64,000 nt of DNA, taken from an uncultured Gammaproteobacteria bacterium. GTDB taxonomy: Bacteria > Patescibacteriota > Microgenomatia > UBA10105 > UBA927. The DNA is taken from contig CAZNKB010000003.1 of NCBI GenBank assembly GCA_964573695.1, positions 36,815-100,814 on the forward strand, read 5' to 3'. Made by a program: the position numbers and the translations under genes. Positions 11,264 to 46,724 of the stretch are shown piece by piece; the first letter of the stretch is position 1, and every line of letters begins with the position of its first letter. Under the pieces are notes generated by a model. The model was given only the letters and a program-made list of their open reading frames with translations, searched no databases and was not told the origin of the DNA.

Positions 11264-11265
11264 CT

Positions 11266-17566: not shown

Positions 17567-17589
17567 ATATTTATATATATAAGTATATA

Positions 17590-18108
17590 TTAAGGACTCG
17601 CATCTCCGCTTGCTATACCGTAGGTACATTCAATGGTACTATCGGTGCTGCAATTGGTGCCGGTATATCCATTCTGATCCACGCCGTCACCGGCATCGTT
17701 TGTATTTTCTAATTTCGCGTATATTTTAAAATTTGTACCGCTGGTCGATACATAATAATATGTTTGCGTACTTATAGGATCCGAGGGAAGAAGCACCATG
17801 TAGAGTGTACTATACTGATCGCGAAAGGCGCCACCCCAGGAACATGCCTGCGCATCAAGCGCTCCGCATCCCATCATGACACCTGCGGAACCGACCGGGT
17901 ACTGCCCCTTGTCATTATAATAGGCCTCAAGCGCCGTCACCAGACTCCGTAAATCGTTTTTCCGCCGGTTGTCACGGCCTCTTCGCGAACTGGACGCATA
18001 TGAACCAGTCGCGATAGCGACCAAAATACTCATAATCACCATGACGATCAGGAGCTCCATAAGCGTGAAACCTGATTGCTTATTTTTTGACTGCCAAAGA
18101 CGTTTCAT
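17590..18108 (-). CDS. type IV pilin-like protein
   Basis: Leader MKRLWQSKNKQSG|FTLMELLIVMVIMSILVAIATG, followed by ...LEAYYND... Confidence 0.65.
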   Translation of the reverse strand: MKRLWQSKNKQSGFTLMELLIVMVIMSILVAIATGSYASSSRRGRDNRRKNDLRSLVTALEAYYNDKGQYPVGSAGVMMGCGALDAQACSWGGAFRDQYSTLYMVLLPSDPISTQTYYYVSTSGTNFKIYAKLENTNDAGDGVDQNGYTGTNCSTDSTIECTYGIASGDASP

Positions 18109-18125
18109 AATACAAAACCAAAAAC

Positions 18126-18824: not shown

Positions 18825-18897
18825 GCGGCCTCGGGCAAATAAGCGCTTCATAAGGACAATGCTTATTATAGTATGGCAAAATATTCCCCACAACACA

Positions 18898-21796: not shown

Positions 21797-22668
21797 AAAG
21801 AAGACCCACACTCTCTATTATTACGGTGACGAAAAATCGGGCAGCACTTCTTAATCAAGCACTTGCCTCATTGGTCGGCCAATGTAAACGCGGCGATGAA
21901 ATCATCGTTGTCGACGCTTCAACCGATGAGACACCGGACATAGTGGCTTCGTATTCCAAAAAATTACCCCTGGTCTATATCCGGTTTCTCAAATCCGGAT
22001 ATCCGACCTTCTATAACAAAGGGGCAAAACAGGCAAAAGGTGACATCCTGGTTTTTTTTGATGACGACTGCCGCGCAACGCCCCGGTTTCTCGAACGAAT
22101 CCGTCGGGCACACGAGACCCACCCTGATTCGATCATTCAGGGGTTTTCCCGAAGCGAACCCAAAGGCAATCTCTATGTCGACATCATGGGCGACCATTAT
22201 GCAAATTGGTTGGAAGCGATGTCCTTGAAAGACAACACCCTCAAAGTCTTCGACAGCAAAAATGCGTCCATTCCCCGAGCCCTTTTTTGGAAATATGGCG
22301 GCTTATCACACACTATGCAACTGGGAAGCGAGGATATCGAATTGGGACTCAGATTACGACGCCACGGCATCAATATTTATCTTGACCGATCGATCGTCGT
22401 ATCACATCGCGAACGCACGACGCTCTGGGAATTCCTTGTGCAGCATCGTCGCTTCGCCGCCAGTGAAGGCCACCTGGACCGCGTCCTTCCGCGTTCTGAA
22501 CGTCTGGGTGTCATACCGTACAAAAAACTCATGCTGCATATCCGCAGCTTTCTCCGAAGAGAACGTCACGCCATTTCCCGGGGCAACATAAAAGATGCTG
22601 TCTTTCTTCTGTTTCTTTACGCCACTCTTGCATGGATCCGGGTTTGGGGGTACGCTTGGCACCGATGA
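21793..22668 (+). CDS. glycosyltransferase family 2 (paralogue of the preceding gene)
   Basis: TLSIITVTKNR...IIVVDASTDET...ILVFFDDDCRA. The start codon overlaps the upstream stop (ATGA at 21793). Confidence 0.7.
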   Translation: MKRRPTLSIITVTKNRAALLNQALASLVGQCKRGDEIIVVDASTDETPDIVASYSKKLPLVYIRFLKSGYPTFYNKGAKQAKGDILVFFDDDCRATPRFLERIRRAHETHPDSIIQGFSRSEPKGNLYVDIMGDHYANWLEAMSLKDNTLKVFDSKNASIPRALFWKYGGLSHTMQLGSEDIELGLRLRRHGINIYLDRSIVVSHRERTTLWEFLVQHRRFAASEGHLDRVLPRSERLGVIPYKKLMLHIRSFLRRERHAISRGNIKDAVFLLFLYATLAWIRVWGYAWHR

Positions 22669-23120
22669 GACCGGTCATTGGTATTATCACATCAAAGGGA
22701 GGACATCTTTATCAGATGTACCGGCTAAAAGACTGGTGGAGCCGCTATGACCGGTTCTGGGTGACGTTTCCGGGACAGGATTCCCAGTCGCTCCTTTCCC
22801 ATGAACGCGTATATCTTGGGTATTATCCCGAAACCCGAAATCTCATCAACGCATTCCGCCACATACGATTAGCGTGGCGTATCTTATTGCGCGAACGACC
22901 GACACTACTCATCAGCTGCGGGGCGGGAATCGCTCCCCCATTTTTTCTCGTCGCTAAGTTACTCCGTATACCGACAGTCTTTATAGAAGTCTTTGACCTG
23001 GTGAAGCACCCGAGTCTCACCGGCAAACTCGTGGAGCCTTTTGTAAATTACTTCCTCATCCAGCACCCGACGCAACGCAAATTCTATAAACACGCGCTCT
23101 ATAAAGGAGCGATTTTATGA
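22665..23120 (+). CDS. Alg14-like oligosaccharide-biosynthesis protein (membrane/acceptor-binding half of a split GT28-type transferase)
   Basis: The segment IGIITSKGGHLYQMYRL resembles the GSGGHTxEM motif. Size is ~150 aa. There is an ATGA overlap with the upstream gene. Confidence 0.6.
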   Translation: MRPVIGIITSKGGHLYQMYRLKDWWSRYDRFWVTFPGQDSQSLLSHERVYLGYYPETRNLINAFRHIRLAWRILLRERPTLLISCGAGIAPPFFLVAKLLRIPTVFIEVFDLVKHPSLTGKLVEPFVNYFLIQHPTQRKFYKHALYKGAIL

Positions 23121-23608
23121 TACTGATTTCCGTAGGCTCCACGCTGTTCCCGTTTCAGCGAATGACGACGCTGGTCGAGCATCTGGCACACGTGAGACCA
23201 AGAAACGAACGCATCATCTTTCAGTACGGCCATACCCAACCGCATTTTTTGGACCGTCACGTCGAGCCATACGCGTTTATCCCGCATGCGAGACTCATGC
23301 GGTACATGGTCAACGCACGGATTATCATCTGTCATGGCGGCCCGGGCACGATTTATCAGGCGCTGTCATTCGGTAAAATTCCCTGGGTCCTGCCACGCCA
23401 AAAGCGCTTCGGGGAACATCTCAACAATCATCAGGTAGATTTTGCCAAATTCATGGCCAGACATAAACTCATTCATATTATTACCCCAAAAACATCGATA
23501 ACGCGCATATGCATGACGGACAAATCGATTCCACCCATACGCAAAACCAACCGACAGTTGTCTGTATTTCTTGACTCGTTGCTTGGGGAAAACTCTGATA
23601 AACAGTGA
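23117..23608 (+). CDS. Alg13-like / Glyco_tran_28_C catalytic subunit
   Basis: MILISVGST...ARIIICHGGPGTIYQALSFGKIPWVLPR...HQVDFAKFM. It overlaps the Alg14-like gene by ATGA, and an AAGGAG RBS sits 8 nt upstream. Confidence 0.6.
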   Translation: MILISVGSTLFPFQRMTTLVEHLAHVRPRNERIIFQYGHTQPHFLDRHVEPYAFIPHARLMRYMVNARIIICHGGPGTIYQALSFGKIPWVLPRQKRFGEHLNNHQVDFAKFMARHKLIHIITPKTSITRICMTDKSIPPIRKTNRQLSVFLDSLLGENSDKQ

Positions 23609-30013: not shown

Positions 30014-30604
30014 CTAAGGAATGAGGTAATTTCCGATTACCCCGAGAGGATCATCGAAGAAATACAATAACCATTGCTGAAGCTTCCTGTTAGGGTACAA
30101 AAATGTCACTTTCTTTTGATAGATGCGGCCAAATAACGTGCGAATGGGGATTTCTTTTGGCTCATCGAGCTCGACACTTCCGGTATTTTTAAGGAGGCGC
30201 ACGGTAATAATTCTTCCTACATTATTTTCAACTTCGTCTAGCGAAATGGGAATCACCATCCGGGGATAATACCCCTCCACAAGGTACCCAGACGCCCCAA
30301 CAAGCAACAACCCCACATCCGTCTCAAGATACACCATGACAAAACCCGGATCTTTCAGACGAACGGATGCCAACTGTATAATCGAACTTCGCACCTGTGG
30401 AAATATGACAACGCGATTATACGGTGCTACCGCGATAATTAGCGCCATAATAAGACTTAAAATCATTCCTGACACGATAGCCCAAAGGATCGAACGACTC
30501 CACAAAAACACGGGTGTGGGTACAGTTTTTGCCTTCACTTGTGTGTCACCCTGGGTGAGTTGTGTCGTTTGCGGTATACTGGCTATAGAAGGCTTTGGCT
30601 CCAT
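30014..30604 (-). CDS. hypothetical membrane protein
   Basis: From internal Met MEPKPS. The TM is ILWAIVSGMILSLIMALIIAVAP. No recognisable domain. Confidence 0.4.
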   Translation of the reverse strand: MEPKPSIASIPQTTQLTQGDTQVKAKTVPTPVFLWSRSILWAIVSGMILSLIMALIIAVAPYNRVVIFPQVRSSIIQLASVRLKDPGFVMVYLETDVGLLLVGASGYLVEGYYPRMVIPISLDEVENNVGRIITVRLLKNTGSVELDEPKEIPIRTLFGRIYQKKVTFLYPNRKLQQWLLYFFDDPLGVIGNYLIP

Positions 30605-30639
30605 ACATCCATTGTAACCAAAGCCAACTAGAAACAACA

Positions 30640-31461
30640 ATGGAACCGATGTCCATACCGATAGCAGAAGCACATACTTCACCTGCCGATGCCCTGACCG
30701 CATCACAGTCACAGAGCAATCCGATTCCACCGACGGCAACCGGGAATGCTTTTTTACAAATCAAAGATATTCCCCGAGTCATCATATGCTGCATCCTTTG
30801 TGCAGTAGTATCTCAAATCGGTTCAAGATACCTCCTATCCATAGCTCGCGATATTCCATATGCGTTTGGGTTTACACGCGAATATATTCTCTATGAAGGG
30901 ATACGCTACACTCCGCATTTATTTCTTCAACGCATCAACGAACAACAAGAGGGCTTCCGCAAAACAATGGTATATTTGGATTCACGGGATTATGTCAGAT
31001 CGTTACCTACAACTCTTCCGTACATTACCCCCATAACTCATATTTACGTCAATAACAATCCCATTGGAAAACTTCCCGAAAATATTTCTGATATGACCCA
31101 ACTTCGATCCTTATATGTTCTCAATGGAAATCTCAAAGTATTACCAGAAACGATCGGTAATCTTACTCAATTAGAAGAAATCATGCTCGCAGGAAATCAC
31201 ATAAAGCGCATACCGGATAGTATTGGTAATCTGACCAACCTCACCGCACTCAATCTCTCATATAACGACATCGAGTCAATTCCCACAAGCATTGCGAATA
31301 TGGAGCATCTTCAAGTTCTCGATCTGACGGGAAACCAGCTAAAAGAATTTCCCCGCGTCCTCCCTCCAAATCTTGTGCTTTTGTTAATTGGCGGCAATCA
31401 TATTTCACCCAGAGTACTGCAAAAAACAGTTGTTCCGGTGCTACAAGACATCATCTTCTGA
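30640..31461 (+). CDS. membrane-anchored leucine-rich-repeat (LRR) protein
   Basis: TM is VIICCILCAVVSQIG. About 8 LRRs follow: LxxLxxLxLxxNxLxxLPxxIGNLTxL (IGNLTQLEEIMLAGNHIKRIPDSIGNLTNLTALNLSYNDIESIP...). Confidence 0.6.
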   Translation: MEPMSIPIAEAHTSPADALTASQSQSNPIPPTATGNAFLQIKDIPRVIICCILCAVVSQIGSRYLLSIARDIPYAFGFTREYILYEGIRYTPHLFLQRINEQQEGFRKTMVYLDSRDYVRSLPTTLPYITPITHIYVNNNPIGKLPENISDMTQLRSLYVLNGNLKVLPETIGNLTQLEEIMLAGNHIKRIPDSIGNLTNLTALNLSYNDIESIPTSIANMEHLQVLDLTGNQLKEFPRVLPPNLVLLLIGGNHISPRVLQKTVVPVLQDIIF

Positions 31462-31558: not shown

Positions 31559-32659
31559 ATGATACCGCTCAATAATCTCTCTCTTCATCATCGCAGCTTG
31601 TCTCATCAGTTCATCGCATCTCTTAAGCGAGTCATGAAACATGGTACGTATATTTTGGGTCCGGAAGTTATAGCATTCGAATCGGCCTTTGCCCGATATA
31701 CCAACACGAAATACGCTATCGGTGTGTCAAACGGCACAGATGCTCTTACGGTATCCCTCAAAGCGGTCCATATCGGCCCGGGAGACGAAGTGATCATTCC
31801 GGCGTTTACGTTTGTGAGCACTGCGTTTGCCGTGCTTCAAACCGGAGCACGACCTGTCCTTGTAGACATAGAACCAACCACATATACCATAGACACCCTC
31901 CAAATGGCCCGGGCGATAACTCGCAAAACAAAAGCAATAATTCCCGTACACCTATATGGCATGCCTTGCGATATGGACATGATCGGACGCCTCGCCAAAA
32001 AGTATAGACTCACCGTCATTGAAGACGCGGCTCAAGCACACGGGAGTTTCTATAAGAAGCGTCCGGCTGGTTCTATTGGGGATATGGGGTGCTTCTCGTT
32101 TTACCCATCCAAAAATTTAGGAGCCTTGGGAGATGCGGGGGCCATAACGACAAACTCATCTCGTCTCGCCTCCCGGATCCGAACCATAATAAATTTGGGC
32201 ACTACAAAAAAATACATACACGTAGATATCGGGGTGAATAATCGGCTTGATAGCTTGCAGGCTGCTTTTCTTTCAAGTGAGCTCCCGATGCTAAATTCAT
32301 GGAACGCGAGACGCCGAAACATAGCGGCGCGCTATACTTCCCTACTTAAGGAGTTGCCGATCGAATTACCGAAAACGCAAAAGGAGCGCATCACCAACAT
32401 GCATTTGTATGTCATCCGCACTAAACAGCGTGCGGCATTACGCCGACACTTGCTTGCCCGAGGCATACAAACAGGTATCCACTACCCTAAGGCGCTCCAT
32501 GAACAACGAGCGCTCCACATGCTTGGGTACACCAAAGGGGCATTTCCGGTAAGCGAGACCGCCGCAAAAGAAGTACTGAGTTTGCCCATGTATCCCAAGC
32601 TCACCGATCGGCAAATCATAACAGTAACCTCGGCAGTTCGGTCATTTTTTCGCCAATGA
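31559..32659 (+). CDS. DegT/DnrJ/EryC1/StrS-family PLP-dependent sugar aminotransferase
   Basis: ...GVSNGTDAL...DEVIIPAFTFVSTA...IEDAAQAHGS...FSFYPSKNLGALGDAG. Confidence 0.75.
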   Translation: MIPLNNLSLHHRSLSHQFIASLKRVMKHGTYILGPEVIAFESAFARYTNTKYAIGVSNGTDALTVSLKAVHIGPGDEVIIPAFTFVSTAFAVLQTGARPVLVDIEPTTYTIDTLQMARAITRKTKAIIPVHLYGMPCDMDMIGRLAKKYRLTVIEDAAQAHGSFYKKRPAGSIGDMGCFSFYPSKNLGALGDAGAITTNSSRLASRIRTIINLGTTKKYIHVDIGVNNRLDSLQAAFLSSELPMLNSWNARRRNIAARYTSLLKELPIELPKTQKERITNMHLYVIRTKQRAALRRHLLARGIQTGIHYPKALHEQRALHMLGYTKGAFPVSETAAKEVLSLPMYPKLTDRQIITVTSAVRSFFRQ

Positions 32660-35418
32660 AACGCTACCTTATTTTCATTCCTTTTCACAATCCATGGGAC
32701 TGGCATACGGATTACGCAAATCAAACCGCTACACTGTTGTCTCTACACCACAGTGTGATCTGTTTCCTGTGGGGTGATACAGTTTCCCTTCGCGAAATTT
32801 TCTCGGGAAGAAAACAGTACCGTCCGATAACCCGTCGTGGACGCACGATTTTGTATCAGCCGATTTACCTCATTCCGGGAAAGCGCGTGCTTGCGGTACA
32901 GTTTATAAACTTGTTTTTCAATCTCTTGATTGCATATATTTTATGTTCAATAACCGCAATTTATCACAAAAAACAGCTCCTTTTCTGGTTTTTCGGGATC
33001 TACGACCCGACTTTTATTCTCCTGCCAATATTTTTCCGGCACACTCCTACGCTGTACGACTGCGTCGATACCCCGTGGCATCCGAAACCGGAGATGGCTT
33101 CTCGGCTCCAGCAAGCAGAAGCGGACATATTGGATCGCGCTTGGATTGTCGCGACCAACTCGCATACGCTTCGCAGTAGACTCCAAAAGACGAGAAAAGA
33201 CATCCACATGGTTCCTCTTGGATTCCGGTCGGAAATGTTTGAACGCCCCCAAAAACATCCGCTCCCTTTTTCCCGAAAACGTCCGATCATTTGCTATACC
33301 GGAGCAATTGATTACCGCCTGGATTTCCCCCTGTTATATCGCCTTATAAGGGCTAACAAAAACTGGCAGTTTGCACTCATCGGCCCTGTGTTCTATGACC
33401 ATATGGTGGCAAAATCCCGTCGTCTCATGGACACCGTATTGACCCTTCCGAACGTATATCACAACACTGTCAGGCCAAACGCAGTGCCGGATATCATAGC
33501 CCAAAGCGACATAACTATCATTCCCTATCGGAATGATTTCGCTTTTAACCGCTATGCTTTCCCCATGAAAATCATGGAATATTTATATGCCAAAAAGAGA
33601 ACTATCACAAGCCAAATCAATGAACTTCGCGGGTACAACCCCCTTGTGGTTATGGCGCAAACCACACGCGAATGGACGACATCAATTCGATATGCCCTGG
33701 CACACCCGCTCGACCAAACTCAAAAACGGAGGGCGCGTCTTACCGCCTCGTCGCACACCTGGAAGAAAAAAATTGACGCCCTCAATCACATACTGGAAAA
33801 TACTCCGGACGACACTACCGGACAGCGCCGATCAGACAAAACTACGGCATTCTGGCTTATTCTTTCCTGCATCCTATTGATCTCATTCGCACTTCGCTTC
33901 TACCGCCTTCCCGAAACCATATGGTTTTTTAATGACCAGGGGCTTGATATGGTGAGCATCTTGCAAATGGAAAAACATGGGATATTGCCTCTCGTCGGAC
34001 CTTTTTTGGATATTCCCGAGGTATATACGCCACCTACGTACTATCTGATCACATGGGCGATGTATCAAGTCACGCACACCGTCATCGGCGTCGTCTATGG
34101 TTATGCACTTCTTAATCTATTTACCATAGTCGTTCTTACAAAAGTAGCGCTCGATAGCATGGGGCGGCGCGCAGCAATTTTTGTGGGAATCCTTCTTGCC
34201 GTATCCGACACTATGATTGATCAGAGTAGGACATTTTGGCAACCCTATCCTATTCAGATATTTCTAGCACTTAGCATCTTGGGATTATGGCAGGCACACA
34301 AAACCAAACGCCTGGTATTTGTATGGCTCGCATCACTCTGTTTTCTTGTGGCCTGCTCTATCTATCCTTCCCCGATCCTGTTATTACCGTTTGTGGCTTA
34401 CCGAATATTTCTCTGGTATCGATTTACCGGACGCAAACGAGTCGCCACATCAGTCTTCCTTGCGATGTTTACGCTTGGAGCGACAGCCGCGCTCGTCTAT
34501 TTGCCTCAAATTGTATTTGAATTTACCCGTGGATTTCCAACAATTATGTCACTATTCTCGACACACACGGAAAAACTCATCCTCAATCCCATGACAAGCT
34601 TGGCACAAAACATTTCCCTGCTTTTCACGGATTTTTTTGCCATACAGCATCTACCCGACCCGTTCAAACCCATAATGATCATAAGCATCGCGGCGCTTTA
34701 TCTTTTCCTCGTTTACAAAACACGCTCCTGGGGAGGAGATAAGCCTCCGTTTTTTGAGCTTTGGCCGCTTGCGCTGGGTTTTTTGTGGTTTCTCTTCTAT
34801 CCGTATGAAGCGCATGCCCACCGTACGGTAGCATATTTGCCTTTTGGCTTTTTGTTGACAGCGGATCTATTGGCCCGAGCATGGAATACGAATCGTGGAA
34901 CGAAATCTCTTGCGGCCGCATTGTTGTTCGGGTATATCATACTCAATCTTTATGGCGCGAAAGGATATTGGATAGGGACCGTTCCCGACCAGAGGAAACA
35001 AACCAAAGACGTCGCGCGCTTTATCGAATCGGATATCGTCACGCGCAATATACCACGGGACACGGTAGGAATTTTCTATAAAGCTGCCAACGACCCGACA
35101 AATGGAAATTACGGCATATACCGTATTTTATTTTGGTTACTGCAACGTGAGGCAATTTCATTTCCCCTTAACCAAGGGGACATACAAATCCCGCATGATT
35201 ATTCTACCCCCATACTCAAACCCTATATGTACATCGTCTGTTGGGGGTTTTCTCTAACAGATTCATTACACGACACGTGTATAAAACCCGTCATCAAATC
35301 CGCACCATATCGCTTTCTTATGGAGCGAAGACTACATGATATGACTATTATGGTGCTGACAAACGAGTCAACGGGCTCTGCCGCTTCCTTCTTTCCTGGC
35401 AACGACCAAAACCGATGA
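32656..35418 (+). CDS. fusion protein: N-terminal GT-B (GT4-like) glycosyltransferase domain plus C-terminal GT-C (ArnT/PMT-like) polytopic membrane domain
   Basis: aa ~200-400 read ICYTGAIDYRLDFPLL...FPMKIMEYLYAKKRTI (GT-B C-domain). aa ~420-900 hold more than 10 TM helices with an early loop FYRLPETIWFFNDQGLD. ATGA overlap with the upstream aminotransferase. Confidence 0.6.
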   Translation: MKRYLIFIPFHNPWDWHTDYANQTATLLSLHHSVICFLWGDTVSLREIFSGRKQYRPITRRGRTILYQPIYLIPGKRVLAVQFINLFFNLLIAYILCSITAIYHKKQLLFWFFGIYDPTFILLPIFFRHTPTLYDCVDTPWHPKPEMASRLQQAEADILDRAWIVATNSHTLRSRLQKTRKDIHMVPLGFRSEMFERPQKHPLPFSRKRPIICYTGAIDYRLDFPLLYRLIRANKNWQFALIGPVFYDHMVAKSRRLMDTVLTLPNVYHNTVRPNAVPDIIAQSDITIIPYRNDFAFNRYAFPMKIMEYLYAKKRTITSQINELRGYNPLVVMAQTTREWTTSIRYALAHPLDQTQKRRARLTASSHTWKKKIDALNHILENTPDDTTGQRRSDKTTAFWLILSCILLISFALRFYRLPETIWFFNDQGLDMVSILQMEKHGILPLVGPFLDIPEVYTPPTYYLITWAMYQVTHTVIGVVYGYALLNLFTIVVLTKVALDSMGRRAAIFVGILLAVSDTMIDQSRTFWQPYPIQIFLALSILGLWQAHKTKRLVFVWLASLCFLVACSIYPSPILLLPFVAYRIFLWYRFTGRKRVATSVFLAMFTLGATAALVYLPQIVFEFTRGFPTIMSLFSTHTEKLILNPMTSLAQNISLLFTDFFAIQHLPDPFKPIMIISIAALYLFLVYKTRSWGGDKPPFFELWPLALGFLWFLFYPYEAHAHRTVAYLPFGFLLTADLLARAWNTNRGTKSLAAALLFGYIILNLYGAKGYWIGTVPDQRKQTKDVARFIESDIVTRNIPRDTVGIFYKAANDPTNGNYGIYRILFWLLQREAISFPLNQGDIQIPHDYSTPILKPYMYIVCWGFSLTDSLHDTCIKPVIKSAPYRFLMERRLHDMTIMVLTNESTGSAASFFPGNDQNR

Positions 35419-36117
35419 TCCGTAGGGATACGATACGAAGGGTAATATCCACGATTCTATCCTATGGAGAAAGATGCACATTTCATTTATCTTGGTGGGT
35501 ACAGCCGAAACGTCCGATGCGCACCCTTTCACATTGAAAAAACGGTCAACCAGGCGCTTCATGGCAAACCAGGGAAACAAAAAAAAGAACATATAAGAGA
35601 TTTTCCGGATGCCAAATCCCGCCTGAGCGACACGCGACCCCAAAAGCGCGCTTGTATAGCGTATCCTGCCGTGTACCGCACGGTCGTGCGGACCAGCCAA
35701 CCACGGCATAGCGCAGTCGGTCACGATAAGCAGTCCGCCCGGCTTAAGAATCCGGTTTGCCTCAGCTAACGCCTTGCGATCGTCTATCCCCCGGTGATAA
35801 AGCACGTCAAATAAACAAACCATATCCATACTTCTCGTAGCCAGCTTTGTCCGCTCCGCATTATCTGCCCGCAACGATATGCCGCGCTTTTTGGCCAACT
35901 TGCGTGCTTTGTGATGCGGCTCAATACCAATCACCGTTCCGTACCGCTTGAGAAGCGAAAACATCCCTCCGGTTCCCGCGCCGATATCTGCAATGGTGAG
36001 GCGCTTTACACCTATCCCGATGTGCCGAAACATGGACTCCAAAAATAAGCGGCGTGAGACAAACCACCAGTGAGTTTTCTCGACATCATACATCACCTGA
36101 TATTCATGCTCTTCCAT
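35368..36117 (-). CDS. class I SAM-dependent methyltransferase
   Basis: IADIGAGTGGMFSLL motif I; ...ILKPGGLLIV. Confidence 0.65.
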   Translation of the reverse strand: MEEHEYQVMYDVEKTHWWFVSRRLFLESMFRHIGIGVKRLTIADIGAGTGGMFSLLKRYGTVIGIEPHHKARKLAKKRGISLRADNAERTKLATRSMDMVCLFDVLYHRGIDDRKALAEANRILKPGGLLIVTDCAMPWLAGPHDRAVHGRIRYTSALLGSRVAQAGFGIRKISYMFFFLFPWFAMKRLVDRFFNVKGCASDVSAVPTKINEMCIFLHRIESWILPFVSYPYGSSVLVVARKEGSGRAR

Positions 36118-37105
36118 GGATAAGACGGCCAGCGAGTGCGCCTGCGAAAATGAAACAATATAACGTAAGCCCGGTGAAAAAGCTTTTTGCGGCAAAAACC
36201 CCGCCCTTTTCCTGATACACAAAGACGAGAAACTTTCGGATCAGGAAAAAGTGGATGACTATGATCACCCCAAGCGCCACCAACGCGTATCCTACGCTAC
36301 CTAAATGACTTAGATAACTCAGGGATGTTGCGATCACAGCTCCCACCACTCCTACCCCGCTCAGAGTCGTCAGAGCCTCTTGCATGGTGGTTGCCACAGG
36401 ATCAAATCGTTTACGCCTGGCATATAGCTTGGTCCAGTAATACGCACGGAGAAAATATTTTTTGGCAATCGGCCAAAATCCTTCAAATTCATGCCGGACT
36501 CTCACCTGAGGTGCAAAAATAATCGCATACCGCCTTGCTATCCGATATGTCAGCTCGATATCTTCGACTAACGGCGCGGGATAGTTTTCGTCAAAGCCTC
36601 CCAGCCTCTCAAACACGGCTTTTTTTATCGCGGCGATCCTGGTCGAAAAGAGAAAGTAGTACCCGCTCTTATCACGCTCATTTATCCAATAACTCCAATC
36701 CCGAAGCGCTTTGAAGTTGGGGAAAAAATCTTTCGAGCGTTGATGCTTTACCCAAACGCCTGTCAGCGCGACGATATCCGGGTCGTCCGAAAATACATTC
36801 GCTATTTCCGATAGAGTATCAGGAAATACCTCAACGTCTCCGTCCAAAAATACGACAAATTCCCCTTTCGCCGCAGCTACCCCCCTGTTTCGAGCCACCG
36901 CAGGTCCTTTGTTATGTGGTAAGCGGACGATATTTGCGGTTTTCTTTCGCATCACGCGAAACGGCAATGGCTGTTTGGATCCGTCGTCAACGACGATAAT
37001 TTCATATGGCGGAGCGTTCTTGCTTTTGGCAAGAGTGAATAGAAGTCGTTCTAGTTTATCCGGAGCGTTAAAATAGGGAATAATAACCGACAAATATGGC
37101 TTCAT
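36104..37105 (-). CDS. glycosyltransferase family 2 with C-terminal TM helices
   Basis: LSVIIPYFNAPD...IIVVDDGS...FVVFLDGDVE, with 2-3 C-terminal TM segments. Confidence 0.65.
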   Translation of the reverse strand: MKPYLSVIIPYFNAPDKLERLLFTLAKSKNAPPYEIIVVDDGSKQPLPFRVMRKKTANIVRLPHNKGPAVARNRGVAAAKGEFVVFLDGDVEVFPDTLSEIANVFSDDPDIVALTGVWVKHQRSKDFFPNFKALRDWSYWINERDKSGYYFLFSTRIAAIKKAVFERLGGFDENYPAPLVEDIELTYRIARRYAIIFAPQVRVRHEFEGFWPIAKKYFLRAYYWTKLYARRKRFDPVATTMQEALTTLSGVGVVGAVIATSLSYLSHLGSVGYALVALGVIIVIHFFLIRKFLVFVYQEKGGVFAAKSFFTGLTLYCFIFAGALAGRLIHGRA

Positions 37106-40163: not shown

Positions 40164-41693
40164 TCAGTCGATACGGACAAGCAAGCTATTATCAGCCGAT
40201 TCCGATCGGTAATGCGCGCGGATGTAGGCCTGATTGGCGGCGGACAAAGTCGATACGCGCCCCAACCGCCCCTGATATATATATCGTGTGTGCGTCCGTT
40301 CCAAGGTGCTGGGCAAATCAGGCAACGGGCGTGACAAGTACGGTTCCCATTGTCCGAACGGAACGCAGCAAACATAATACGGATCGGCAAAATAGATCGT
40401 TGATCCGACCAGATCCAAAACATACGCACCTTTGGGAATCATCGCTATAGCCCTGTTGAGAATACGGACATCCTCATCATTGGTAAGCATGAGTTTAGGC
40501 ATATTGATCTGGCCGTTTACGCTCCATATGCCGATGCACAAGGCCGCAAAACCTAAGGTAAATACGAACCGTCCTTCCTGCCTCTGACTCAAATAATTCC
40601 ATGCAACCAACACGACATCCGCTGCATAAAACGCTACAAACACCGCAATAGGAATCAGATATTGGGCGTGACGCAGCGGGTAGCCATAGAGAAACGATAG
40701 GATGTAGGAGAGACATGTCCCCGCAATAAGCATCTCCTGCCATACGCCTTTTTTGCCGTGTGCAACAAACGGGCTGACAAACCGAATGCTTCCGGCCATA
40801 AGCCCTATAAACCAACATATATGATTTGCAACGAGCCCGACGGACCATCCGGGCAGACCGTAATAAACGGTATTCGGATAAAAAAATAAATCAGCCTGCA
40901 TACCGAATACTTCTCCTATTCGGTTTACTTCAAACGGAAGCTTGGTTAGGGAATAAACGACCGTATCAACGACCGTCCAGTCTCGGAAGACAAAAGCGAC
41001 CCAGAACACAAACATCCCGAAAGATATCACCCCTCCGGCGACAAAGCTTATGAATGCTCGATTTCTGTCCCGGATACTTTCTTCACCCAAAAACATCCAC
41101 GCAAAAAGAACCACGCTGGAAACGACGACCTGCGGCAGCGTCTTTTGTAACACCAGAAGCGACGCGCCGTACAATAACCCCGAAAGGATGAACATCCAGT
41201 ATCGGCGAGGCAGACGGATCGCGTCAATCTCACAGATGAGACCGAGCAATGCAAGAAGCACGGCCAGCGTGTCCGGCCGTATCTCCATGAGCTTGTCTTG
41301 CGGCAACGGGAGAAAAACAAACAACGCTGCAGCCAGTACCGCCACCCAAGACTTCCGCACCTGCCAAAACAAATACGACATAGCCCCCGCCGTCATGACA
41401 TATAGGACAAATGCGACGGTGCGCCCTACAAAAAGTACCACCTGTCCTTCAACAAACGCATACATCGGGGCCAACACATAAAGAAACCCGGGAGGCGCAT
41501 AAAGGAGAAAATCCCGATAAGGAAGATGTCCGGAAAATACATTATGTGCCCAATGAAGATAAGCGAGCTCATCCGCATCGAAGTACCGCACAAGTGAACT
41601 ATGCCAGCGCGACCATAAAAGGAGCAAAAGCAGGCAGAAGGAAAAAAGTCCCAAAATTTTCGCAAGTGGCACTCGAAATTGTGTTAGTCGCAT
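40164..41693 (-). CDS. GT-C-fold polytopic membrane glycosyltransferase (ArnT/PMT-like)
   Basis: More than 10 TM helices. The first loop FDADELAYLHWAHNVFSGHLPYRDF carries the DE motif typical of GT-C enzymes. Start uncertain (41693, 41759 or 41819). Confidence 0.55.
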   Translation of the reverse strand: MRLTQFRVPLAKILGLFSFCLLLLLLWSRWHSSLVRYFDADELAYLHWAHNVFSGHLPYRDFLLYAPPGFLYVLAPMYAFVEGQVVLFVGRTVAFVLYVMTAGAMSYLFWQVRKSWVAVLAAALFVFLPLPQDKLMEIRPDTLAVLLALLGLICEIDAIRLPRRYWMFILSGLLYGASLLVLQKTLPQVVVSSVVLFAWMFLGEESIRDRNRAFISFVAGGVISFGMFVFWVAFVFRDWTVVDTVVYSLTKLPFEVNRIGEVFGMQADLFFYPNTVYYGLPGWSVGLVANHICWFIGLMAGSIRFVSPFVAHGKKGVWQEMLIAGTCLSYILSFLYGYPLRHAQYLIPIAVFVAFYAADVVLVAWNYLSQRQEGRFVFTLGFAALCIGIWSVNGQINMPKLMLTNDEDVRILNRAIAMIPKGAYVLDLVGSTIYFADPYYVCCVPFGQWEPYLSRPLPDLPSTLERTHTRYIYQGRLGRVSTLSAANQAYIRAHYRSESADNSLLVRID

Positions 41694-41718
41694 GGGATAA
41701 TGACACCATTGTGACACA

Positions 41719-43329
41719 ATGAAAAAAATATCTCGAGATACGAGTGCTACTTTTATCATAGGTGCGTTAATCATTACGGCGAATTCATGGCACGTGATAA
41801 CCGAATGGCTTATCAACAAACCAAACGAAGTATTTACGGCCGTATCGCATTACTTCATAGATTATTTTTTCTATATATCTCACATTGTCCAGGGAGCAAA
41901 TGGCGCGTGGCTATACACAAGGCACATGTTCACCAACGAGCCGCTGACTCCCACTTGGATTTATTGGCTTTACACGATTTTAGGTAAATTCAGCAGCATA
42001 GGAGTCAATCCCTTTACTGTGTACAACATAAGTATTGTCGCCTTTTCTGCCCTGACACTTATCCTCTGGTGGAAGATGCTCAGGGTAATACTCCCAGATA
42101 AACCCCTCACACGACTCGTTGCATTCTTGTTTATCACGACGGCGTCGAATTTCCCCGGATTGGGAGACTTCTGGTTTTCCCCTACTCCGGCGCTCAATCG
42201 TCTGGGCGGAGTTCCGCACCAAATTTTCCAAACAATCGTCCTTCTTTTGACAATGTATTTATTCTCGTTGACCATGCACCCAAAGCAACTCCTGGTGGGC
42301 CGCAAACGAACAGTCATGCTTGGTTCCCTCACGCTTGTGTCCTTTATATCGGCAACCGTAAGTCCTATACAAATGCTTCTTGTCGTCGCTGCTACTGCTT
42401 TGTTGCTCATCATAACGGGAAAAGGGAAAATGGAGGCTCTTCACCTCATATCGTTTAGCGTTCTCGCCGCCCCGGCGCTGGCAGGGGCATATCTTACTAA
42501 TGGAGAATTTGCCCGCCAACAAATCCTTGTAATTGCAAAATCCTGGGAAAACAGTCAGCACATTTCTGTCACGCTTTGGCAATTTATACTAGCGGTCGGC
42601 CCTATTTCTATCTGCATCCCTTTTGGGATAAAACCGTTCGCACAAAAAACGCCGCCCCTACGCATGCTCCTCGGGATATTTTCATTGCTTTCCCTCATAC
42701 TTTTTTTCTCCCCCGTTCCCCGCTTATTAGGAACTGCTTCGGTGCGTTGGCTTTCCCCCGCTTCTTACGGGGCGCTCCCGATTCTTGCAGCGTTGGGATT
42801 TGAAGAAATCGTCCGACTCACAAAACGGTCTGTACTGCGGCAAATTCCGTCGCCAAGTGTATTTTCCCTTCTCCTCGTCATCTATCTCCTCGTTACGATT
42901 CCCTCTCTAATCAACCAAATACACGCGCGCGTGTCTCCTCTTAGAAACGATCGGGTCATTGCATCGCTTAACCATATTCCCTTTGCCATGAGGGACGCGT
43001 TCGTGGTCATTAAGAAAGACAGTCGCGACGGTGTTATCATGACGGATCCGGTACTTACCTACGATACGGTTATCCCGATATTTACCGGCAAACGAACGCT
43101 TACCGGGCAACCGGTTCACACGCTTTATCCCCAGGTGAAAGAACATCTACGCACGCGTTTTTTTTCCGGAACCATGTCGGAGCTTGAGGCCAAACAATTT
43201 ATCACGGACCATGATATTGACTACATTCTCGCTTCTTCGGGCGCATCGCGCTCGCTCCCCACTTATGCATTTATGAGCGAAATATTTCACAACGAAGCTG
43301 CCTCCGTCTATGTCACATACAAAAAGTAG
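41719..43329 (+). CDS. polytopic membrane protein, uncharacterised GT-C-like family (paralogue 1 of 3 in this window)
   Basis: Shares HxxDYxFYxSxIxxGxxGxW...FTxE...GGVPHQ motifs with the ORFs at 51686-53344 and 56259-57854. Confidence 0.55.
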   Translation: MKKISRDTSATFIIGALIITANSWHVITEWLINKPNEVFTAVSHYFIDYFFYISHIVQGANGAWLYTRHMFTNEPLTPTWIYWLYTILGKFSSIGVNPFTVYNISIVAFSALTLILWWKMLRVILPDKPLTRLVAFLFITTASNFPGLGDFWFSPTPALNRLGGVPHQIFQTIVLLLTMYLFSLTMHPKQLLVGRKRTVMLGSLTLVSFISATVSPIQMLLVVAATALLLIITGKGKMEALHLISFSVLAAPALAGAYLTNGEFARQQILVIAKSWENSQHISVTLWQFILAVGPISICIPFGIKPFAQKTPPLRMLLGIFSLLSLILFFSPVPRLLGTASVRWLSPASYGALPILAALGFEEIVRLTKRSVLRQIPSPSVFSLLLVIYLLVTIPSLINQIHARVSPLRNDRVIASLNHIPFAMRDAFVVIKKDSRDGVIMTDPVLTYDTVIPIFTGKRTLTGQPVHTLYPQVKEHLRTRFFSGTMSELEAKQFITDHDIDYILASSGASRSLPTYAFMSEIFHNEAASVYVTYKK

Positions 43330-45025
43330 CCTGAAAAAAATCCTGTCGTGGTGCCACACGCACGCAGGACTCATCACCACCGTAGCATTTCTTTTACTGC
43401 ATCTGTCTATCATGGACAGATACGGATATACGTGGGATTTTCATTTCCACTTCTTCGGAGGCGGCAAATTGTTGGGAATAGAGCCGAACGTACTGGAACC
43501 GCGTAACTTACCCTTTGTCGAGCCGGATCCGAGAAACGCCTGGACGCTTCCGTATGGGGCGCTCATGAGCATCCCCCCCGTCGCCTCATACCTTGTCCTG
43601 TACAAAACGCTGCACCTGCTCCCTGCCGATGCCGCATACCATCTGCCGATTATTTTTTGGGGCATAGCCGGTGTAGCCATTCTGTATGCGTTTGTTAAAG
43701 AAGCGGCCAATGCGCGCACGGCGTTATTTGCAGCATTCATATTGGCACTTACGCCGCGATATTTTGGGGACATGCATAATAATATGAAGGACATCCCTTC
43801 TGCAGTTGTATTCGCGCTTAATATATGGCTCTTGTGGCGGTTCGTCCGTCATAAACGACTGACGGATCTTCTCTTGGCTATAGCCGCCTTTGCCATAGCG
43901 TTCAACGTGAAGGTCAACAGCGTCTTTATTCCTGCCGTCTTTGCCTGCTGGCTTATTTTTTTGCGTTTTACCAATTACCGATTACGGAGTGCTAACTACC
44001 TATCGTATTTTCTCCTCGCTCCCCTTGCCGCATTTCTTCTCTGGTGGGTATTCTGGCCCGATCCTATCGGACAACTGAAACACGCGTTTCTCACATTTGG
44101 CATAGGAACGAATAATATAGAAGTCCTCTTGAACGGATCCTGGTACTGCTCCGGATCTACCGTACCGTGGTATTACCCGTATTGGTATCTAGCTATAACT
44201 ATGCCGCTATCTGTTTTGATATTCTTTTTGGTAGGTGTTAGCGCGCCAATTTTTCCGGCAGTGCAACAATTCTTGACCGTTTACACATCACCGCTCAGGG
44301 GAAAAACATATCACATAACTCATGACGTTTCCGTGAGGCATCAACGGCAAACTCTTCTGCTCCTCTGGCTCTTCATCCCGCTTACCCGTTATCTCGTGCC
44401 TTCTATCGGAGTCATTGATGGAATTCGGCATTTTGAAGAAGCGCTCTTCCCCCTCGCCGCCCTCGCGGCTCTCGGCGTGGACAAGATATTTAGCTTCGCA
44501 AGGCGTCCCCTTGCGAAGCTAATTTTTCTATGTTTCGTTTTTGGGTCTTTGTTCTCCATAAATTGGTCTTACCACCCTTACCAAATCGCTTACTTTAACG
44601 AACTTGTGGGCGGAGCCGCGGGCGCCGTCGGCAAATATGATCTCGATTACTGGGGTACGAGCCAGAAGGAGGCGGTTCTTTGGGTCAACGCTCATGCGCC
44701 GAAAAACTCTACCGTTCACATCGCCATGGCAGCTGCTGTAGCCGGCCAATATCTGCGTCCGGATCTTCTCGCGACTCTCAATACGCGGGGATACGACGAT
44801 TCGGACTTTGTCGTCATCTTAAATAGGCAATCATTCTTCTATCGTTTCTTCTACGTCTACGAATATCTTCTCGCCCACCGGCCAACATACACGGTGCGCG
44901 CGGCGGGAGCGCCTCTCACCTGGGTATACGACAACCGATCCGCAAACACGACACCACGTCAATCACCTTGGTGGCAAGATGAAGATCCATGTATCATAAA
45001 ATATTGGCGGGGAGAACGTCCGTAA
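43310..45025 (+). CDS. GT-C-fold polytopic membrane protein (PMT_2/ArnT-like)
   Basis: About 12 TM helices with a large hydrophilic C-terminal domain. Loop TPRYFGDMHNNMKDIP. Confidence 0.5.
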   Translation: MSHTKSSLKKILSWCHTHAGLITTVAFLLLHLSIMDRYGYTWDFHFHFFGGGKLLGIEPNVLEPRNLPFVEPDPRNAWTLPYGALMSIPPVASYLVLYKTLHLLPADAAYHLPIIFWGIAGVAILYAFVKEAANARTALFAAFILALTPRYFGDMHNNMKDIPSAVVFALNIWLLWRFVRHKRLTDLLLAIAAFAIAFNVKVNSVFIPAVFACWLIFLRFTNYRLRSANYLSYFLLAPLAAFLLWWVFWPDPIGQLKHAFLTFGIGTNNIEVLLNGSWYCSGSTVPWYYPYWYLAITMPLSVLIFFLVGVSAPIFPAVQQFLTVYTSPLRGKTYHITHDVSVRHQRQTLLLLWLFIPLTRYLVPSIGVIDGIRHFEEALFPLAALAALGVDKIFSFARRPLAKLIFLCFVFGSLFSINWSYHPYQIAYFNELVGGAAGAVGKYDLDYWGTSQKEAVLWVNAHAPKNSTVHIAMAAAVAGQYLRPDLLATLNTRGYDDSDFVVILNRQSFFYRFFYVYEYLLAHRPTYTVRAAGAPLTWVYDNRSANTTPRQSPWWQDEDPCIIKYWRGERP

Positions 45026-45035
45026 CTGTCAGATT

Positions 45036-46724
45036 ATGAAACAGCATATATACCTGCCGATTATTGTCTTTGCGCTTCTTGTGCTCGCTCCGCTCCTTAC
45101 TCCTCTGACTCAGCACGGCACGCTGCACCAATTCGATACGATACTCCATTTGGAACGGATCGTGGCGTTTTATCAGGCGCTTTTGGATCACAGTATTCCT
45201 CCTTCGTGGTCCACATATTTATCGTATGGATTCGGGTCCCCTGTGCTTATCTACAACTGGTCTTTCCCCTATTATGTTGCCTCCCTGTTCCTTTCTCTTC
45301 ATGTCACCCTTGTGGATACGTACAAATGGATGACGGCAATAACTTACGTACTCGCATTTGTCTGGATGTTTCTATTTGTCGCCACTTTTACCAAATCCCG
45401 CGCCAGCGCGCTCGTTGCAGCAGCCTGGTACGTGTGGGCACCATACCAGTTCAACATCAACCAGCTGCGGGGCGCTATCGGGGAAGAATTTGCCACCGCG
45501 TTTTGGCCGGGTATATTTTGGGCGACGGTGACACTGTTTCATAAACGCTATACGCTCGGCTTTTTCACCGGCACCTTACTGTGGTCTGTGACACTTTGGT
45601 CCCACCCGCCGATGTTTGCCATGATTGTTCCGCTGTGGTTGCTATTTATGATACTCCACCTGATTGAAACACGGAATATCCGCGCGGCAATCGTATCGCT
45701 TAGCACGCTTTTGGCCGGCATGGGGATAGTCGCGTATTCCTGGATTCCGATTCTTTTTGAACGTGAATGGCTCTATTATGGCGTACACGAGGCAATATAT
45801 CCGGACAACTTTGTCCGTTGGTCGCAACTGCTTTCTCAGCCTAATTTCTATGAATTCAACCTTGAGCTTGGCCCCACACGGTACTTCGTCTTTTATTCCA
45901 TAGGGTGGGTATTCCTGGTAGTTGGAATTCTTACGGCATACGCACTCGTTGTCCACAGCCGGAAATTGACCCGCACGCATATCTTTGCGCTCCTGTTTCT
46001 TGGTATGGGAATATTCGGGGTTTTTCTCCTTCGCCCGGCATCTACCTGGTTATGGGCATATCTGCCGTTACTTGCTCCCACTATGGTATTCCCTCAGCGG
46101 TTTTTGGGACTCGTTATGTTTTGCGGGAGTGTCCTGGGCGGATTGTATATATCCCGTCTCAATAAGCGGCACGTCTGGACCGGAGCCATACTGTCTATTG
46201 CCGGGATTATGTTTCTCAATTATCCGTATCTTACGCTGAATAAAAATCGCGAAACGGACATAGCCAAACTCAATAATCCCGTACTGACGACGACAGACGT
46301 ATGGGGAGAATTCAGTCCGAAATGGATACCGGCCGATTTCCAACAGCGTGGCCCAACCCTCGCCAAACGTCCCCTTCTCACTATAACGCCGGAACAACCC
46401 AAGGAACCCGTATGCACCCAGACATCGATATCCCTCACCTGTACCGTTGATACCCAAGACGCCGCAACTGTAGGAATACGTCAGTTCTATTTCCCGGGCT
46501 GGCAGGCTACAGCGGACGGAACCGACTACCCCGTTACAAAAGATGCAGACGGCACCATGCGTCTTGATCTTACCAAGCCTACCCATACTATTCGGTTAGT
46601 CTTTGGTAAGACTCCGGTACGGAAATTTTCCCTGATTCTGTCCGCCGTATGTACGGGACTGTATCTATTTTTTGGTGCAAAAGCTGTTTATACTCGTATG
46701 AGAAGGAAACACACACACTTATGA
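45036..46724 (+). CDS. polytopic membrane protein, GT-C-like (DUF2298/COG5617-like features)
   Basis: HLERIVAFYQAL...PPSWSTYLSYGFGSPVLIYNWSFPYYV motif, then more than 10 TM helices and a C-terminal soluble domain. Confidence 0.5.
   Translation: MKQHIYLPIIVFALLVLAPLLTPLTQHGTLHQFDTILHLERIVAFYQALLDHSIPPSWSTYLSYGFGSPVLIYNWSFPYYVASLFLSLHVTLVDTYKWMTAITYVLAFVWMFLFVATFTKSRASALVAAAWYVWAPYQFNINQLRGAIGEEFATAFWPGIFWATVTLFHKRYTLGFFTGTLLWSVTLWSHPPMFAMIVPLWLLFMILHLIETRNIRAAIVSLSTLLAGMGIVAYSWIPILFEREWLYYGVHEAIYPDNFVRWSQLLSQPNFYEFNLELGPTRYFVFYSIGWVFLVVGILTAYALVVHSRKLTRTHIFALLFLGMGIFGVFLLRPASTWLWAYLPLLAPTMVFPQRFLGLVMFCGSVLGGLYISRLNKRHVWTGAILSIAGIMFLNYPYLTLNKNRETDIAKLNNPVLTTTDVWGEFSPKWIPADFQQRGPTLAKRPLLTITPEQPKEPVCTQTSISLTCTVDTQDAATVGIRQFYFPGWQATADGTDYPVTKDADGTMRLDLTKPTHTIRLVFGKTPVRKFSLILSAVCTGLYLFFGAKAVYTRMRRKHTHL

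Follow-up and report, generated by a model that had tools for sequence, protein, structure and literature searches.

A rare single-chain fusion of a GT4-like GT-B domain with a GT-C membrane glycosyltransferase domain in Gottesmanbacteria

A 64-kb stretch of DNA (the window; 64,000 nucleotides of contig CAZNKB010000003.1, assembly GCA_964573695.1) contains a gene, at 32656..35418 on the plus strand, that encodes two glycosyltransferase domains in one 106-kDa polypeptide of 920 residues. Our models predict that a GT4-like domain of the GT-B fold is tethered through a linker of about 14 residues to the first transmembrane helix (TM1) of a GT-C(A) domain with 11 such helices. On balance, we favor the view that this is a genuine two-domain membrane glycosyltransferase, recent in one sub-lineage of Gottesmanbacteria (Candidate Phyla Radiation (CPR)/Patescibacteria), which serves two pathway steps on opposite membrane faces. 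The fusion is a rare, recent arrangement of two known enzyme classes, not a new mechanism or catalytic principle.

The fused gene is a single uninterrupted open reading frame (ORF) with an ATG start and no internal stop, as read from the ORF list and translation. When about 15 billion proteins, in 5.8 billion non-redundant clusters, were searched by word index, an identical protein from an NCBI genome (P0001) was recovered. A second fused protein of 920 residues (P0002) is encoded in an independent Logan assembly, ERR13763444 (locus L002), and shares 84% amino acid identity with the first. At the nucleotide level the two genes are 86.8% identical, differing at 13% of positions with zero indels, and L002 keeps the gene order of the window around the fused gene. 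The ratio of nonsynonymous to synonymous substitution rates (dN/dS; Nei–Gojobori, window versus L002) is 0.19 for the whole gene, with values of 0.14 for the N-terminal domain, 0.24 for the membrane domain and 0.23 for the C-terminal soluble domain. Purifying selection acts on both halves. From the C-terminal limit of the GT-B domain to the first transmembrane helix, the linker DNA has no in-frame ATG, GTG or TTG, so a separate GT-C protein that retains TM1 could not be initiated there.

The intact frame, the second assembly without indels, the dN/dS values and the start-less linker together indicate that the fusion is real and that its halves are kept by selection. An assembly or sequencing artifact, in which a missed stop or a frameshift joined two genes, is highly improbable. 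The halves are indeed two genes in every other relative, and indel errors do occur in metagenome-assembled genomes (MAGs), as an apparent frameshift in the GT-C gene of locus L008 illustrates. However, both independent assemblies preserve the full 920-codon frame and the linker, which has no start codon, and the genes of the unfused relatives lie in different frames, so one base error could not have joined them cleanly. The original prediction of a single polypeptide is therefore borne out, with no stop or frameshift found in the gene and agreement from the second assembly.

The full-length protein was modeled with AlphaFold2 from a 26-sequence alignment (A3), giving a mean predicted local distance difference test (pLDDT) value of 85.5 and a predicted template-modeling score (pTM) of 0.64. 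The C-terminal half was modeled separately from a 19-sequence alignment (A4; pLDDT 86.3, pTM 0.86). When compared to the PDB with Foldseek, the models show a GT-B fold for the N-terminal half and a GT-C fold for the C-terminal half, the outcome that the original prediction had anticipated from such a check. The domain assignments rest mainly on these models, because sequence-only evidence is weak and Pfam scores fall under the gathering thresholds.

The GT-B fold is defined by two Rossmann-like β/α/β domains on either side of a cleft. In the model, residues 1–382 form two alternating β/α Rossmann-like halves, at pLDDT values mostly of 85–97, and match many GT4 structures with a Foldseek probability of 1.0 and target-normalized TM-scores of up to 0.70. 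The best PDB matches of the full-length model are GT4 enzymes of the GT-B fold, namely MshA (2.2e-11), an archaeal glycogen synthase, GlgM, OtsA, BshA, PimB′ and HepE; GumK is also among the GT-B fold matches, and ArnT appears at rank 49–50 of the same list. These results uphold the earlier assignment of a Leloir-type, GT4-like domain. The relation to WecG that had been offered as an alternative found no support: no WecG/TagA (GT26) family appeared in Pfam or NCBIfam scans at E values up to 1, no GT26 enzyme was present among the 50 best fold matches, and the fold matches are GT4 enzymes.

At the sequence level, the best model for this half is NCBIfam TuaH (NF047676; residues 81–371, E = 1.6e-23), named for the teichuronic acid glycosyltransferase of Bacillus subtilis. 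Its score of 83.2 bits stands against a required 550, and TuaH equivalog identity was rejected in favor of family-level kinship. The Pfam matches over residues 202–348 are likewise under gathering scores (PF13692 Glyco_trans_1_4, 24.0 versus 27 bits; PF00534 Glycos_transf_1, 18.6 versus 26.4 bits); precomputed matches to these families are present in many stand-alone GT-B orthologs. No PDB chain was matched by sequence with the fused protein as a single query, and the N-terminal family profile matches the GT4 enzyme Tll1590 (6kih; E = 3.1e-6).

Several residues of the GT-B half are invariant across 30 homologs. Glu308 aligns to the second Glu of the GT4 EX7E motif in Tll1590, and Arg221 to the basic residue of the Tll1590 GRxxxxKG stretch, which follows the first strand of the C-terminal Rossmann half. 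With Lys305, these are candidate donor-binding residues; Asp135 and Asp138 are also invariant. The conserved basic residues and Glu308 fall in the C-terminal Rossmann half, a possible point of likeness to the retaining GT4 enzymes MshA, BshA and PimB′, which are the best fold matches. In contrast to TuaH and the GT4 enzymes, the GT-B half has a Tyr in place of the first EX7E Glu, an unusually long hydrophobic helix, a distinctive N-terminal motif and the fusion to a membrane enzyme. The helix, residues 79–103, is also kept in the stand-alone orthologs and is a possible membrane-interface anchor. The motif, PFHNPWxWHTDY, is unlike the usual GT4 loop, which is glycine-rich.

The 35 best PDB fold matches of the C-terminal half (residues 390–905) are all GT-C enzymes. 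ArnT ranks first (E = 4.9e-7, TM-score 0.56–0.57, about 600 aligned columns, 11% identity), followed by STT3, ALG12, ALG9, AglB, ALG3, Pmt4, PglB, EmbA/B/C, PimE, AftB and PIG-M. The GT-C similarity on which the earlier view of this half depended is thus present, with ArnT nearest. An identity with ArnT proper (GT83) was rejected, given 11% identity in the structural alignment and no PDB sequence match by single sequence or family profile. Sequence comparison of this half to PDB chains, using the single sequence and a 7-sequence profile, returned only VMAT2 at E = 0.099, which is not meaningful. Pfam PMT_2 (PF13231) scores 15.9 versus 26.1 bits in the window protein, and six of seven family members match this model, all under threshold (best E = 1.8e-5). 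Aligned with hhalign, the GT-C family profile matches a bona fide PMT_2 protein of the window (43310–45025) with 77% probability (E = 2e-5).

GT-C(A) enzymes are defined by a conserved N-terminal seven-helix transmembrane module and a variable module; their first luminal loop has two helices, the first of which carries the catalytic base (PMC13503287). In ALG9 and ALG12, the variable part comprises four transmembrane helices and a luminal C-terminal domain, resulting in a 7+4 layout (PMC13503287). The models of the GT-C half show this organization. DSSP places the seven helices of the conserved module at residues 390–415, 476–502, 504–516, 532–550, 553–569, 572–591 and 596–624, and these are followed by four more and a soluble domain. 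TM1 spans residues 397–415, with RRSDK just before it. The first outer loop has two helices and just 2 Lys/Arg among its 60 residues, and positive-inside counts place it outside. The DQGLD motif lies where the first helix of this loop begins, and its Asp427, Gly429 and Asp431 are invariant in 19 GT-C family members, two remote ones included. Asp427 and Asp431 are candidate catalytic or donor-binding acids, their catalytic role being predicted. Ser517, Arg525, Trp528 and Pro530 are also invariant among the 19 members and Glu622 and His722 nearly so; Asp522, Glu718 and Arg723 are invariant in the seven closest members. Of these, the conserved Glu622, Glu718, His722 and Arg723 sit in outer loops.

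Hydropathy, positive-inside counts and DSSP give a topology of 11 predicted transmembrane helices that lead from an inside N-terminus to an outside C-terminus. The helices of the variable module are separated by Lys/Arg-rich inner loops. The C-terminal domain should lie outside, because an odd set of 11 helices begins with an inside N-terminus; it contains the highly conserved motif NDPxNGxYGIYRILFWL. The nucleotide-sugar domain is accordingly modeled on the cytoplasmic side, where nucleotide sugars exist, and the GT-C active-site loop on the outer side. The final 51 bases of the fused gene (35368–35418) overlap the 3′ end of a convergent methyltransferase gene (35368–36222, minus strand), and likewise in L002. 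The overlapped tail, residues 906–920, is disordered in the model and under weaker constraint (dN/dS 0.47). A scan for promoters and terminators near the fused gene gave counts within 1–2 standard deviations of shuffled controls and indicated no specific site.

One half could in principle be a non-catalytic passenger, for example with the GT-B domain serving the GT-C domain as scaffold, regulator or membrane-docking module, or the reverse. The missing first Glu of EX7E, the Pfam scores under threshold and the departure of PFHNPWxWHTDY from the glycine-rich loop would fit such a role for the GT-B domain. However, its candidate donor-binding residues, like Asp135 and Asp138, are invariant across the homologs, it has the lowest dN/dS among the protein's domains, and its stand-alone orthologs are full-length and conserved; in the GT-C half, Asp427 and Asp431 are invariant. 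We consider a passenger quite improbable.

The coupling of the two domains proved as uncommon as the original prediction had held. A profile search of the GT-C family recovered about 19 true members, all stand-alone proteins of 518–545 residues except the two fused proteins. A search with the GT-B half found 41 homologs, all stand-alone (322–410 residues), one of which is named Candidatus Gottesmanbacteria. An exhaustive phmmer search, with the whole protein as query, covered 1.84 billion cluster representatives; among the 150 best matches listed, P0002 is the only one that matches both halves. Any protein resembling both halves, even distantly, would have come near the top of this list. For these two families, the fused arrangement is thus one 50%-identity cluster among 1.84 billion representatives. 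Three genomes among the GTDB species representatives, of the Gottesmanbacteria or Patescibacteria type, carry the family. The placement of the fused gene in this lineage follows from relatives named Candidatus Gottesmanbacteria or Patescibacteria. A full-text literature search for GT-B/GT-C and GT4/GT83/GT39 fusions found no description of a single-chain GT-B/GT-C enzyme, and one candidate (PMC6151902) proved unrelated. Domain databases list occasional GT-B/GT-C architectures, none of which is known to have been characterized.

The original prediction had called for a check of related genomes for the same fusion. It is present in L002; in nine related loci with enough flanking sequence, the orthologs are separate genes. 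In all nine, the GT-B ortholog is upstream of the GT-C ortholog on the same strand. The two genes are 1.4–3.1 kb apart in L001, L003, L004, L008 and L009, with a small minus-strand gene and a leucine-rich repeat (LRR) protein gene between them, and adjacent in L005 (35 bp), L006 (under about 80 bp), L010 (23 bp) and L011 (17 bp). L010 and L011 match the gene order of the window, which is GFO/IDH/MocA oxidoreductase, LRR protein, DegT, GT-B, GT-C and convergent methyltransferase, although of the two loci the LRR protein is called as such in L011 only. In both, GT-B and GT-C are two genes in different reading frames. The fused gene starts within the stop region of the DegT aminotransferase gene upstream of it, the two sharing an ATGA at 32656–32659, and they are probably co-translated; the unfused L010 has the same DegT–GT-B order with, by its gene coordinates, the same ATGA overlap, and L011 the same order with a 35-base gene overlap.

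Since the other family members are stand-alone and the orthologs are separate same-strand genes in related loci, the fusion is the derived state. Both halves rank the relatives broadly alike, with L001 the closest (61% identity over 383 residues for its stand-alone GT-B ortholog) and L006 and L005 the most distant, and are therefore taken as vertical orthologs. At the position of the linker, stand-alone relatives carry a stop codon and 17–35 bp, with the next gene in another frame. The sequence comparison suggests that the fusion arose by stop loss and a small indel between adjacent cistrons, and that it is younger than the split from relatives of about 50% identity and older than the 84%-identical pair. 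The linker that it created has a pLDDT of about 66 in the full-length model, falling below 50 at residues 388–392. In a neighbor-joining tree of the GT-C half (no bootstrap), the fused pair groups with the lineages whose genes are 1.4–3.1 kb apart. This conflicts with the gene order around the fusion, which matches that of the adjacent-gene clade.

Three related loci differ in other ways. In L008 (6001–7505; MAG JBMOPU010000012.1, 'Patescibacteria group bacterium'), the GT-C ortholog is matched as two segments that lie in different frames and meet near 6780, which indicates either a pseudogene or a sequencing error. L007 (CAYUZE010000006.1) belongs to a MAG labeled 'uncultured Gammaproteobacteria bacterium' and carries the family at 42% identity; the family otherwise occurs only in loci labeled Gottesmanbacteria or Patescibacteria, or unlabeled, and this contig is probably mis-binned. 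L001 has a 481-residue GT-C paralog (8485–9930; about 29–31% identical, weak PMT_2 match) directly upstream of the GT-C ortholog, a tandem duplication of a kind not seen in the window.

The fused gene lies within a glycan-assembly island of about 28 kb that is syntenic across relatives. The island encodes two Wzy_C/O-antigen-ligase-like proteins, paralogous GT2 enzymes, a split Alg14/Alg13-like pair, a radical SAM/SPASM protein, further GT2 and GT4 enzymes, a UDP-GlcNAc-3-dehydrogenase-like oxidoreductase, two DegT aminotransferases, a hexapeptide acetyltransferase, a methyltransferase and at least five more large polytopic proteins, including a clear PMT_2 and a YfhO. Its Alg14/Alg13-like, GT2, GT4, Wzy_C, sugar 3-dehydrogenase, aminotransferase, acetyltransferase and further GT-C-like genes are the other parts of a lipid-linked glycan line. 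Many relatives have a DegT gene and a GT2 gene of 206–236 residues flanking the GT-C gene. The best models for this GT2 are ArnC, AglJ, dolichyl-phosphate (Dol-P)-hexose transferase and PpgS, all polyprenyl-phosphate-sugar synthases. This pair follows the GT-C gene tail to tail on the minus strand in L001 (11565–13399), L003 (11526–13458), L004 (11595–13513) and L009 (7543–9482), and is also found at L005 11569–12237. It is not beside the GT-C gene in the window, L002, L010 or L011. The window holds two small GT2 genes elsewhere. The 239-residue one is a candidate polyprenyl-phosphate-sugar synthase that could supply the donor of the GT-C domain, and the 252-residue one is the closest match in the window (33%, tblastn) to the GT2 of the flanking pair in relatives.

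This GT2-bearing context and the opposite-face topology are why we favor two different steps of one pathway. In this scheme, the stop codon and spacer of 17–35 bp between neighboring same-strand genes of a conserved surface-glycan cluster would have been lost, producing the fusion. At the inner face, the GT-B domain would use a nucleotide sugar to extend a membrane-bound, probably polyprenyl-diphosphate-linked glycan. The intermediate would then be flipped by another protein, a step that must intervene if the active sites are, as predicted, on different faces of the membrane. At the outer face, the GT-C domain would add a different sugar from a polyprenyl-phosphate-sugar donor, for which an ArnC/DPM1-like GT2 enzyme encoded in the locus would be responsible. 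This donor probably comes from those enzymes, not from the GT-B domain. The fusion would confer a fixed 1:1 stoichiometry and co-localization of an early and a late step, with no direct substrate channeling. Two functions had been put forward originally. The addition of two different sugars is the better fit, at two steps on two membrane faces, given the GT2 genes of the locus and the opposite-facing active sites. Making and immediately using a lipid-linked donor is not favored, in view of the same topology and of the ArnC/AglJ/PpgS/Dol-P-hexose-transferase-like GT2 genes in relatives and in the window.

A role for the GT-B domain in making or completing the lipid-linked donor that the GT-C domain consumes is unlikely in our judgment. 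It could take two forms. The GT-B domain might charge polyprenyl phosphate with a sugar, or it might add the last sugar to a polyprenyl-diphosphate glycan that an oligosaccharyltransferase- or ligase-like GT-C domain transfers en bloc after flipping. The two orthologs always share a cluster and are often adjacent, and the oligosaccharyltransferases STT3, AglB and PglB are among the GT-C fold matches. Many GT4 enzymes use lipid-linked acceptors, and GumK and PimB′ are among the GT-B fold matches. However, the locus keeps two GT2 genes of the polyprenyl-phosphate-sugar-synthase type, and the characterized synthases of this kind are GT-A/GT2 enzymes. The fusion lineage does lack the small GT2 seen beside the GT-C gene in many relatives, as such a role might lead one to expect, but the unfused L010 and L011, with the exact gene order of the window, lack it as well. 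The absence is therefore not linked to the fusion, and a loss tied to the fusion was rejected. ArnT as the best fold match and the ALG9/ALG12-like 7+4 layout suggest monosaccharide-phosphate donors, although the fold alone is not decisive. Immediate use would also be impossible without a flippase, with the active sites on opposite faces.

The fusion may also mirror a physical partnership of the separate orthologs, in which the GT4 enzyme docks on the GT-C enzyme and its lipid-linked product is handed across the membrane, via or alongside the GT-C domain, to the outer site. We regard this as improbable. If true, the pair would be a coupled 'glycosylate, translocate, glycosylate' machine, and some GT-C enzymes would help to move lipid-linked substrate across the membrane.

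Several points weigh against the two-step, two-face interpretation. The alignments behind both models are shallow, and the relative orientation of the GT-B and GT-C domains is uncertain in the full-length model; since the pTM is lower for the whole protein than for the GT-C half alone (0.64 versus 0.86), we make no statement on a domain interface. Both halves miss the curated Pfam and NCBIfam cut-offs. The position of the first EX7E Glu is Tyr300 in most family members. The functional steps of both families are read from fold and context. The flanking small GT2 of relatives has no clear ortholog beside the fusion, and no flippase or priming phosphoglycosyl transferase was recognized among the unannotated ORFs of the window.

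Comparison to known systems places the predicted steps among established pathways. ArnT (CAZy GT83, undecaprenyl-phosphate-L-Ara4N:lipid A transferase; PDB 5f15/5ezm) is the best structural match of the C-terminal half, and both are polytopic proteins whose first outer loop bears acidic residues and whose C-terminal domain is soluble and external. The position of the GT-C gene of relatives beside a DegT aminotransferase and an ArnC-like GT2 recalls the ArnB–ArnC–ArnT triad. In contrast, the identity is only 11%, the host of the fused protein has no lipid A, and ArnT has no cytoplasmic glycosyltransferase domain; ArnT has 13 transmembrane helices, versus the 11 predicted here.

The assembly of eukaryotic lipid-linked oligosaccharides follows a similar order, with the cytoplasmic GT4 enzymes ALG2 and ALG11 acting before the luminal GT-C(A) enzymes ALG3, ALG9 and ALG12, which use polyprenyl-phosphate sugars and depend on the GT2 enzyme DPM1 for their supply. 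The five best GT-C fold matches include ALG12 and ALG9, and the 7+4 helices with an outer C-terminal domain are as in ALG9 and ALG12 (PMC13503287). The window locus also holds an Alg14/Alg13-like pair. However, all of the eukaryotic enzymes are separate proteins, whereas an inner-face and an outer-face enzyme are here in one chain, and no orthology is claimed. Mycobacterial synthesis of phosphatidylinositol mannosides and lipomannan has the same logic, with PimA and PimB′ followed by PimE.

Bacterial three-component transmembrane glycosylation combines a GtrB/CsbB-type GT2, a small flippase and a GT-C enzyme such as YfhO, GacL or GtrS (PMC8035078). The GT-C component acts at the outer face, carries a DxD-like motif in an outer loop and takes its lipid-phosphate sugar from the small GT2 (PMC8035078). 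Such GT2 genes are present in the window locus. Unlike the fused protein, these systems have no GT-B domain fused to their GT-C enzyme, and a GtrA-like flippase was not recognized in the window.

Table 1. Positions of the fused gene, its predicted parts and relevant neighbors in the window
Feature	Coordinates	Strand	Basis
Whole fused gene	32656..35418	+	920 codons plus stop; ORF list, translation, equal-length ortholog in L002
GT-B (GT4-like, TuaH-like) domain, residues 1–382, predicted cytoplasmic	32656..33801	+	AlphaFold2 model, Foldseek, NCBIfam TuaH, profile match to 6kih
Very hydrophobic helix of 25 residues (79–103), N-terminal Rossmann half	32890..32964	+	Kyte–Doolittle mean 2.16; single helix in model
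Candidate donor-binding residues R221, K305, E308, C-terminal Rossmann half	33316..33579	+	Invariant in 30 family members
Fusion-derived linker, residues 383–396 (TPDDTTGQRRSDKT)	33802..33843	+	Low pLDDT; no in-frame start; dN/dS 0.18
Predicted GT-C conserved module TM1–TM7, residues 390–624	33823..34527	+	DSSP of models, positive-inside counts, Foldseek
Predicted first extracytoplasmic loop, residues 416–475; helices 426–441, 461–473	33901..34080	+	DSSP of both models
DQGLD motif, residues 427–431	33934..33948	+	D427/G429/D431 invariant in 19 members
Predicted GT-C variable module, residues 625–775	34528..34980	+	DSSP: outer loop with short helices, then four transmembrane helices
C-terminal α/β soluble domain, residues 776–905, predicted extracytoplasmic	34981..35370	+	Modeled strands and helices, pLDDT about 85–90
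DegT/DnrJ/EryC1 sugar aminotransferase	31559..32659	+	Pfam 1.3e-115; stop overlaps fused-gene start
Small GT2, 239 residues	39398..40117	-	Best NCBIfam PgfS, AglJ, ArnC, PpgS, Dol-P-hexose transferase, all far under cut-off
Second small GT2, 252 residues	48331..49089	+	NCBIfam Dol-P-hexose transferase 5.6e-20, ArnC 4e-16

Other genes of the window surround the fusion. The LRR protein (30595–31461, plus strand) and a small DUF7282-like membrane protein (30014–30739, minus strand) adjoin the GT-B and GT-C genes and are conserved in most related loci, including L001–L005, L009 and L011. The Alg14/Alg13-like pair consists of two short adjacent genes (22632–23608, plus strand), one Alg14-like (PF08660, 5.3e-10) and one Glyco_tran_28_C/Alg13-like by synteny. 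It resembles a split MurG/Alg13–Alg14-type GT-B enzyme, as in eukaryotic and archaeal N-glycan assembly, and is kept in L002, L004 and L005. Just before it are two tandem paralogous GT2 genes (20915–22668, plus strand; 293 and 325 residues in the ORF list) with overlapping ORFs, the second of which probably has its true start downstream of the listed ATG. The regions 40164–46724 and 49674–53344 encode a further six large polytopic membrane proteins: one clear PMT_2 protein (43310–45025, 2.6e-14), one YfhO-like (49674–51695), one weakly PTPS_related and three without a family match. The density of probable GT-C enzymes is unusually high for a small genome.

Directly upstream of the glycan cluster, three consecutive small genes (17045–18896, minus strand) carry a prokaryotic N-terminal methylation motif and are type IV pilin- or pseudopilin-like. 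Further upstream, a 1612-residue ORF (6425–11263, plus strand) has two N-terminal DNA-binding matches of the MerR/helix-turn-helix type, long stretches of collagen triple-helix repeats (1e-61) and, at its C-terminus, an H-type lectin domain, an odd mixture for which the start or gene model may be wrong. Giant predicted surface proteins at 10–4194 and 11245–16464 (plus strand) have lectin domains of the Laminin_G_3/concanavalin-like type, with six copies in the second protein, together with a domain like the receptor-binding one of clostridial neurotoxins. These proteins may be adhesins and could serve as acceptors for the glycan of the neighboring cluster.

Both halves of the fused protein represent small families without a studied member, apparently restricted to CPR bacteria; the GT-C family numbered about 20 sequences in the word-index search of roughly 15 billion proteins. 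Given its rarity and young age, the fusion in itself probably carries little adaptive weight. The fused protein is a natural and possible single-chain construct for expression, imaging and structural work on inner- and outer-face glycosyltransferases. Its main value is the functional link between two CPR-specific families: as a 'Rosetta stone', it connects one particular cytoplasmic GT4 enzyme with one particular outward-facing GT-C enzyme in the same surface-glycan pathway, in organisms that are not yet culturable and whose envelopes are almost unknown.

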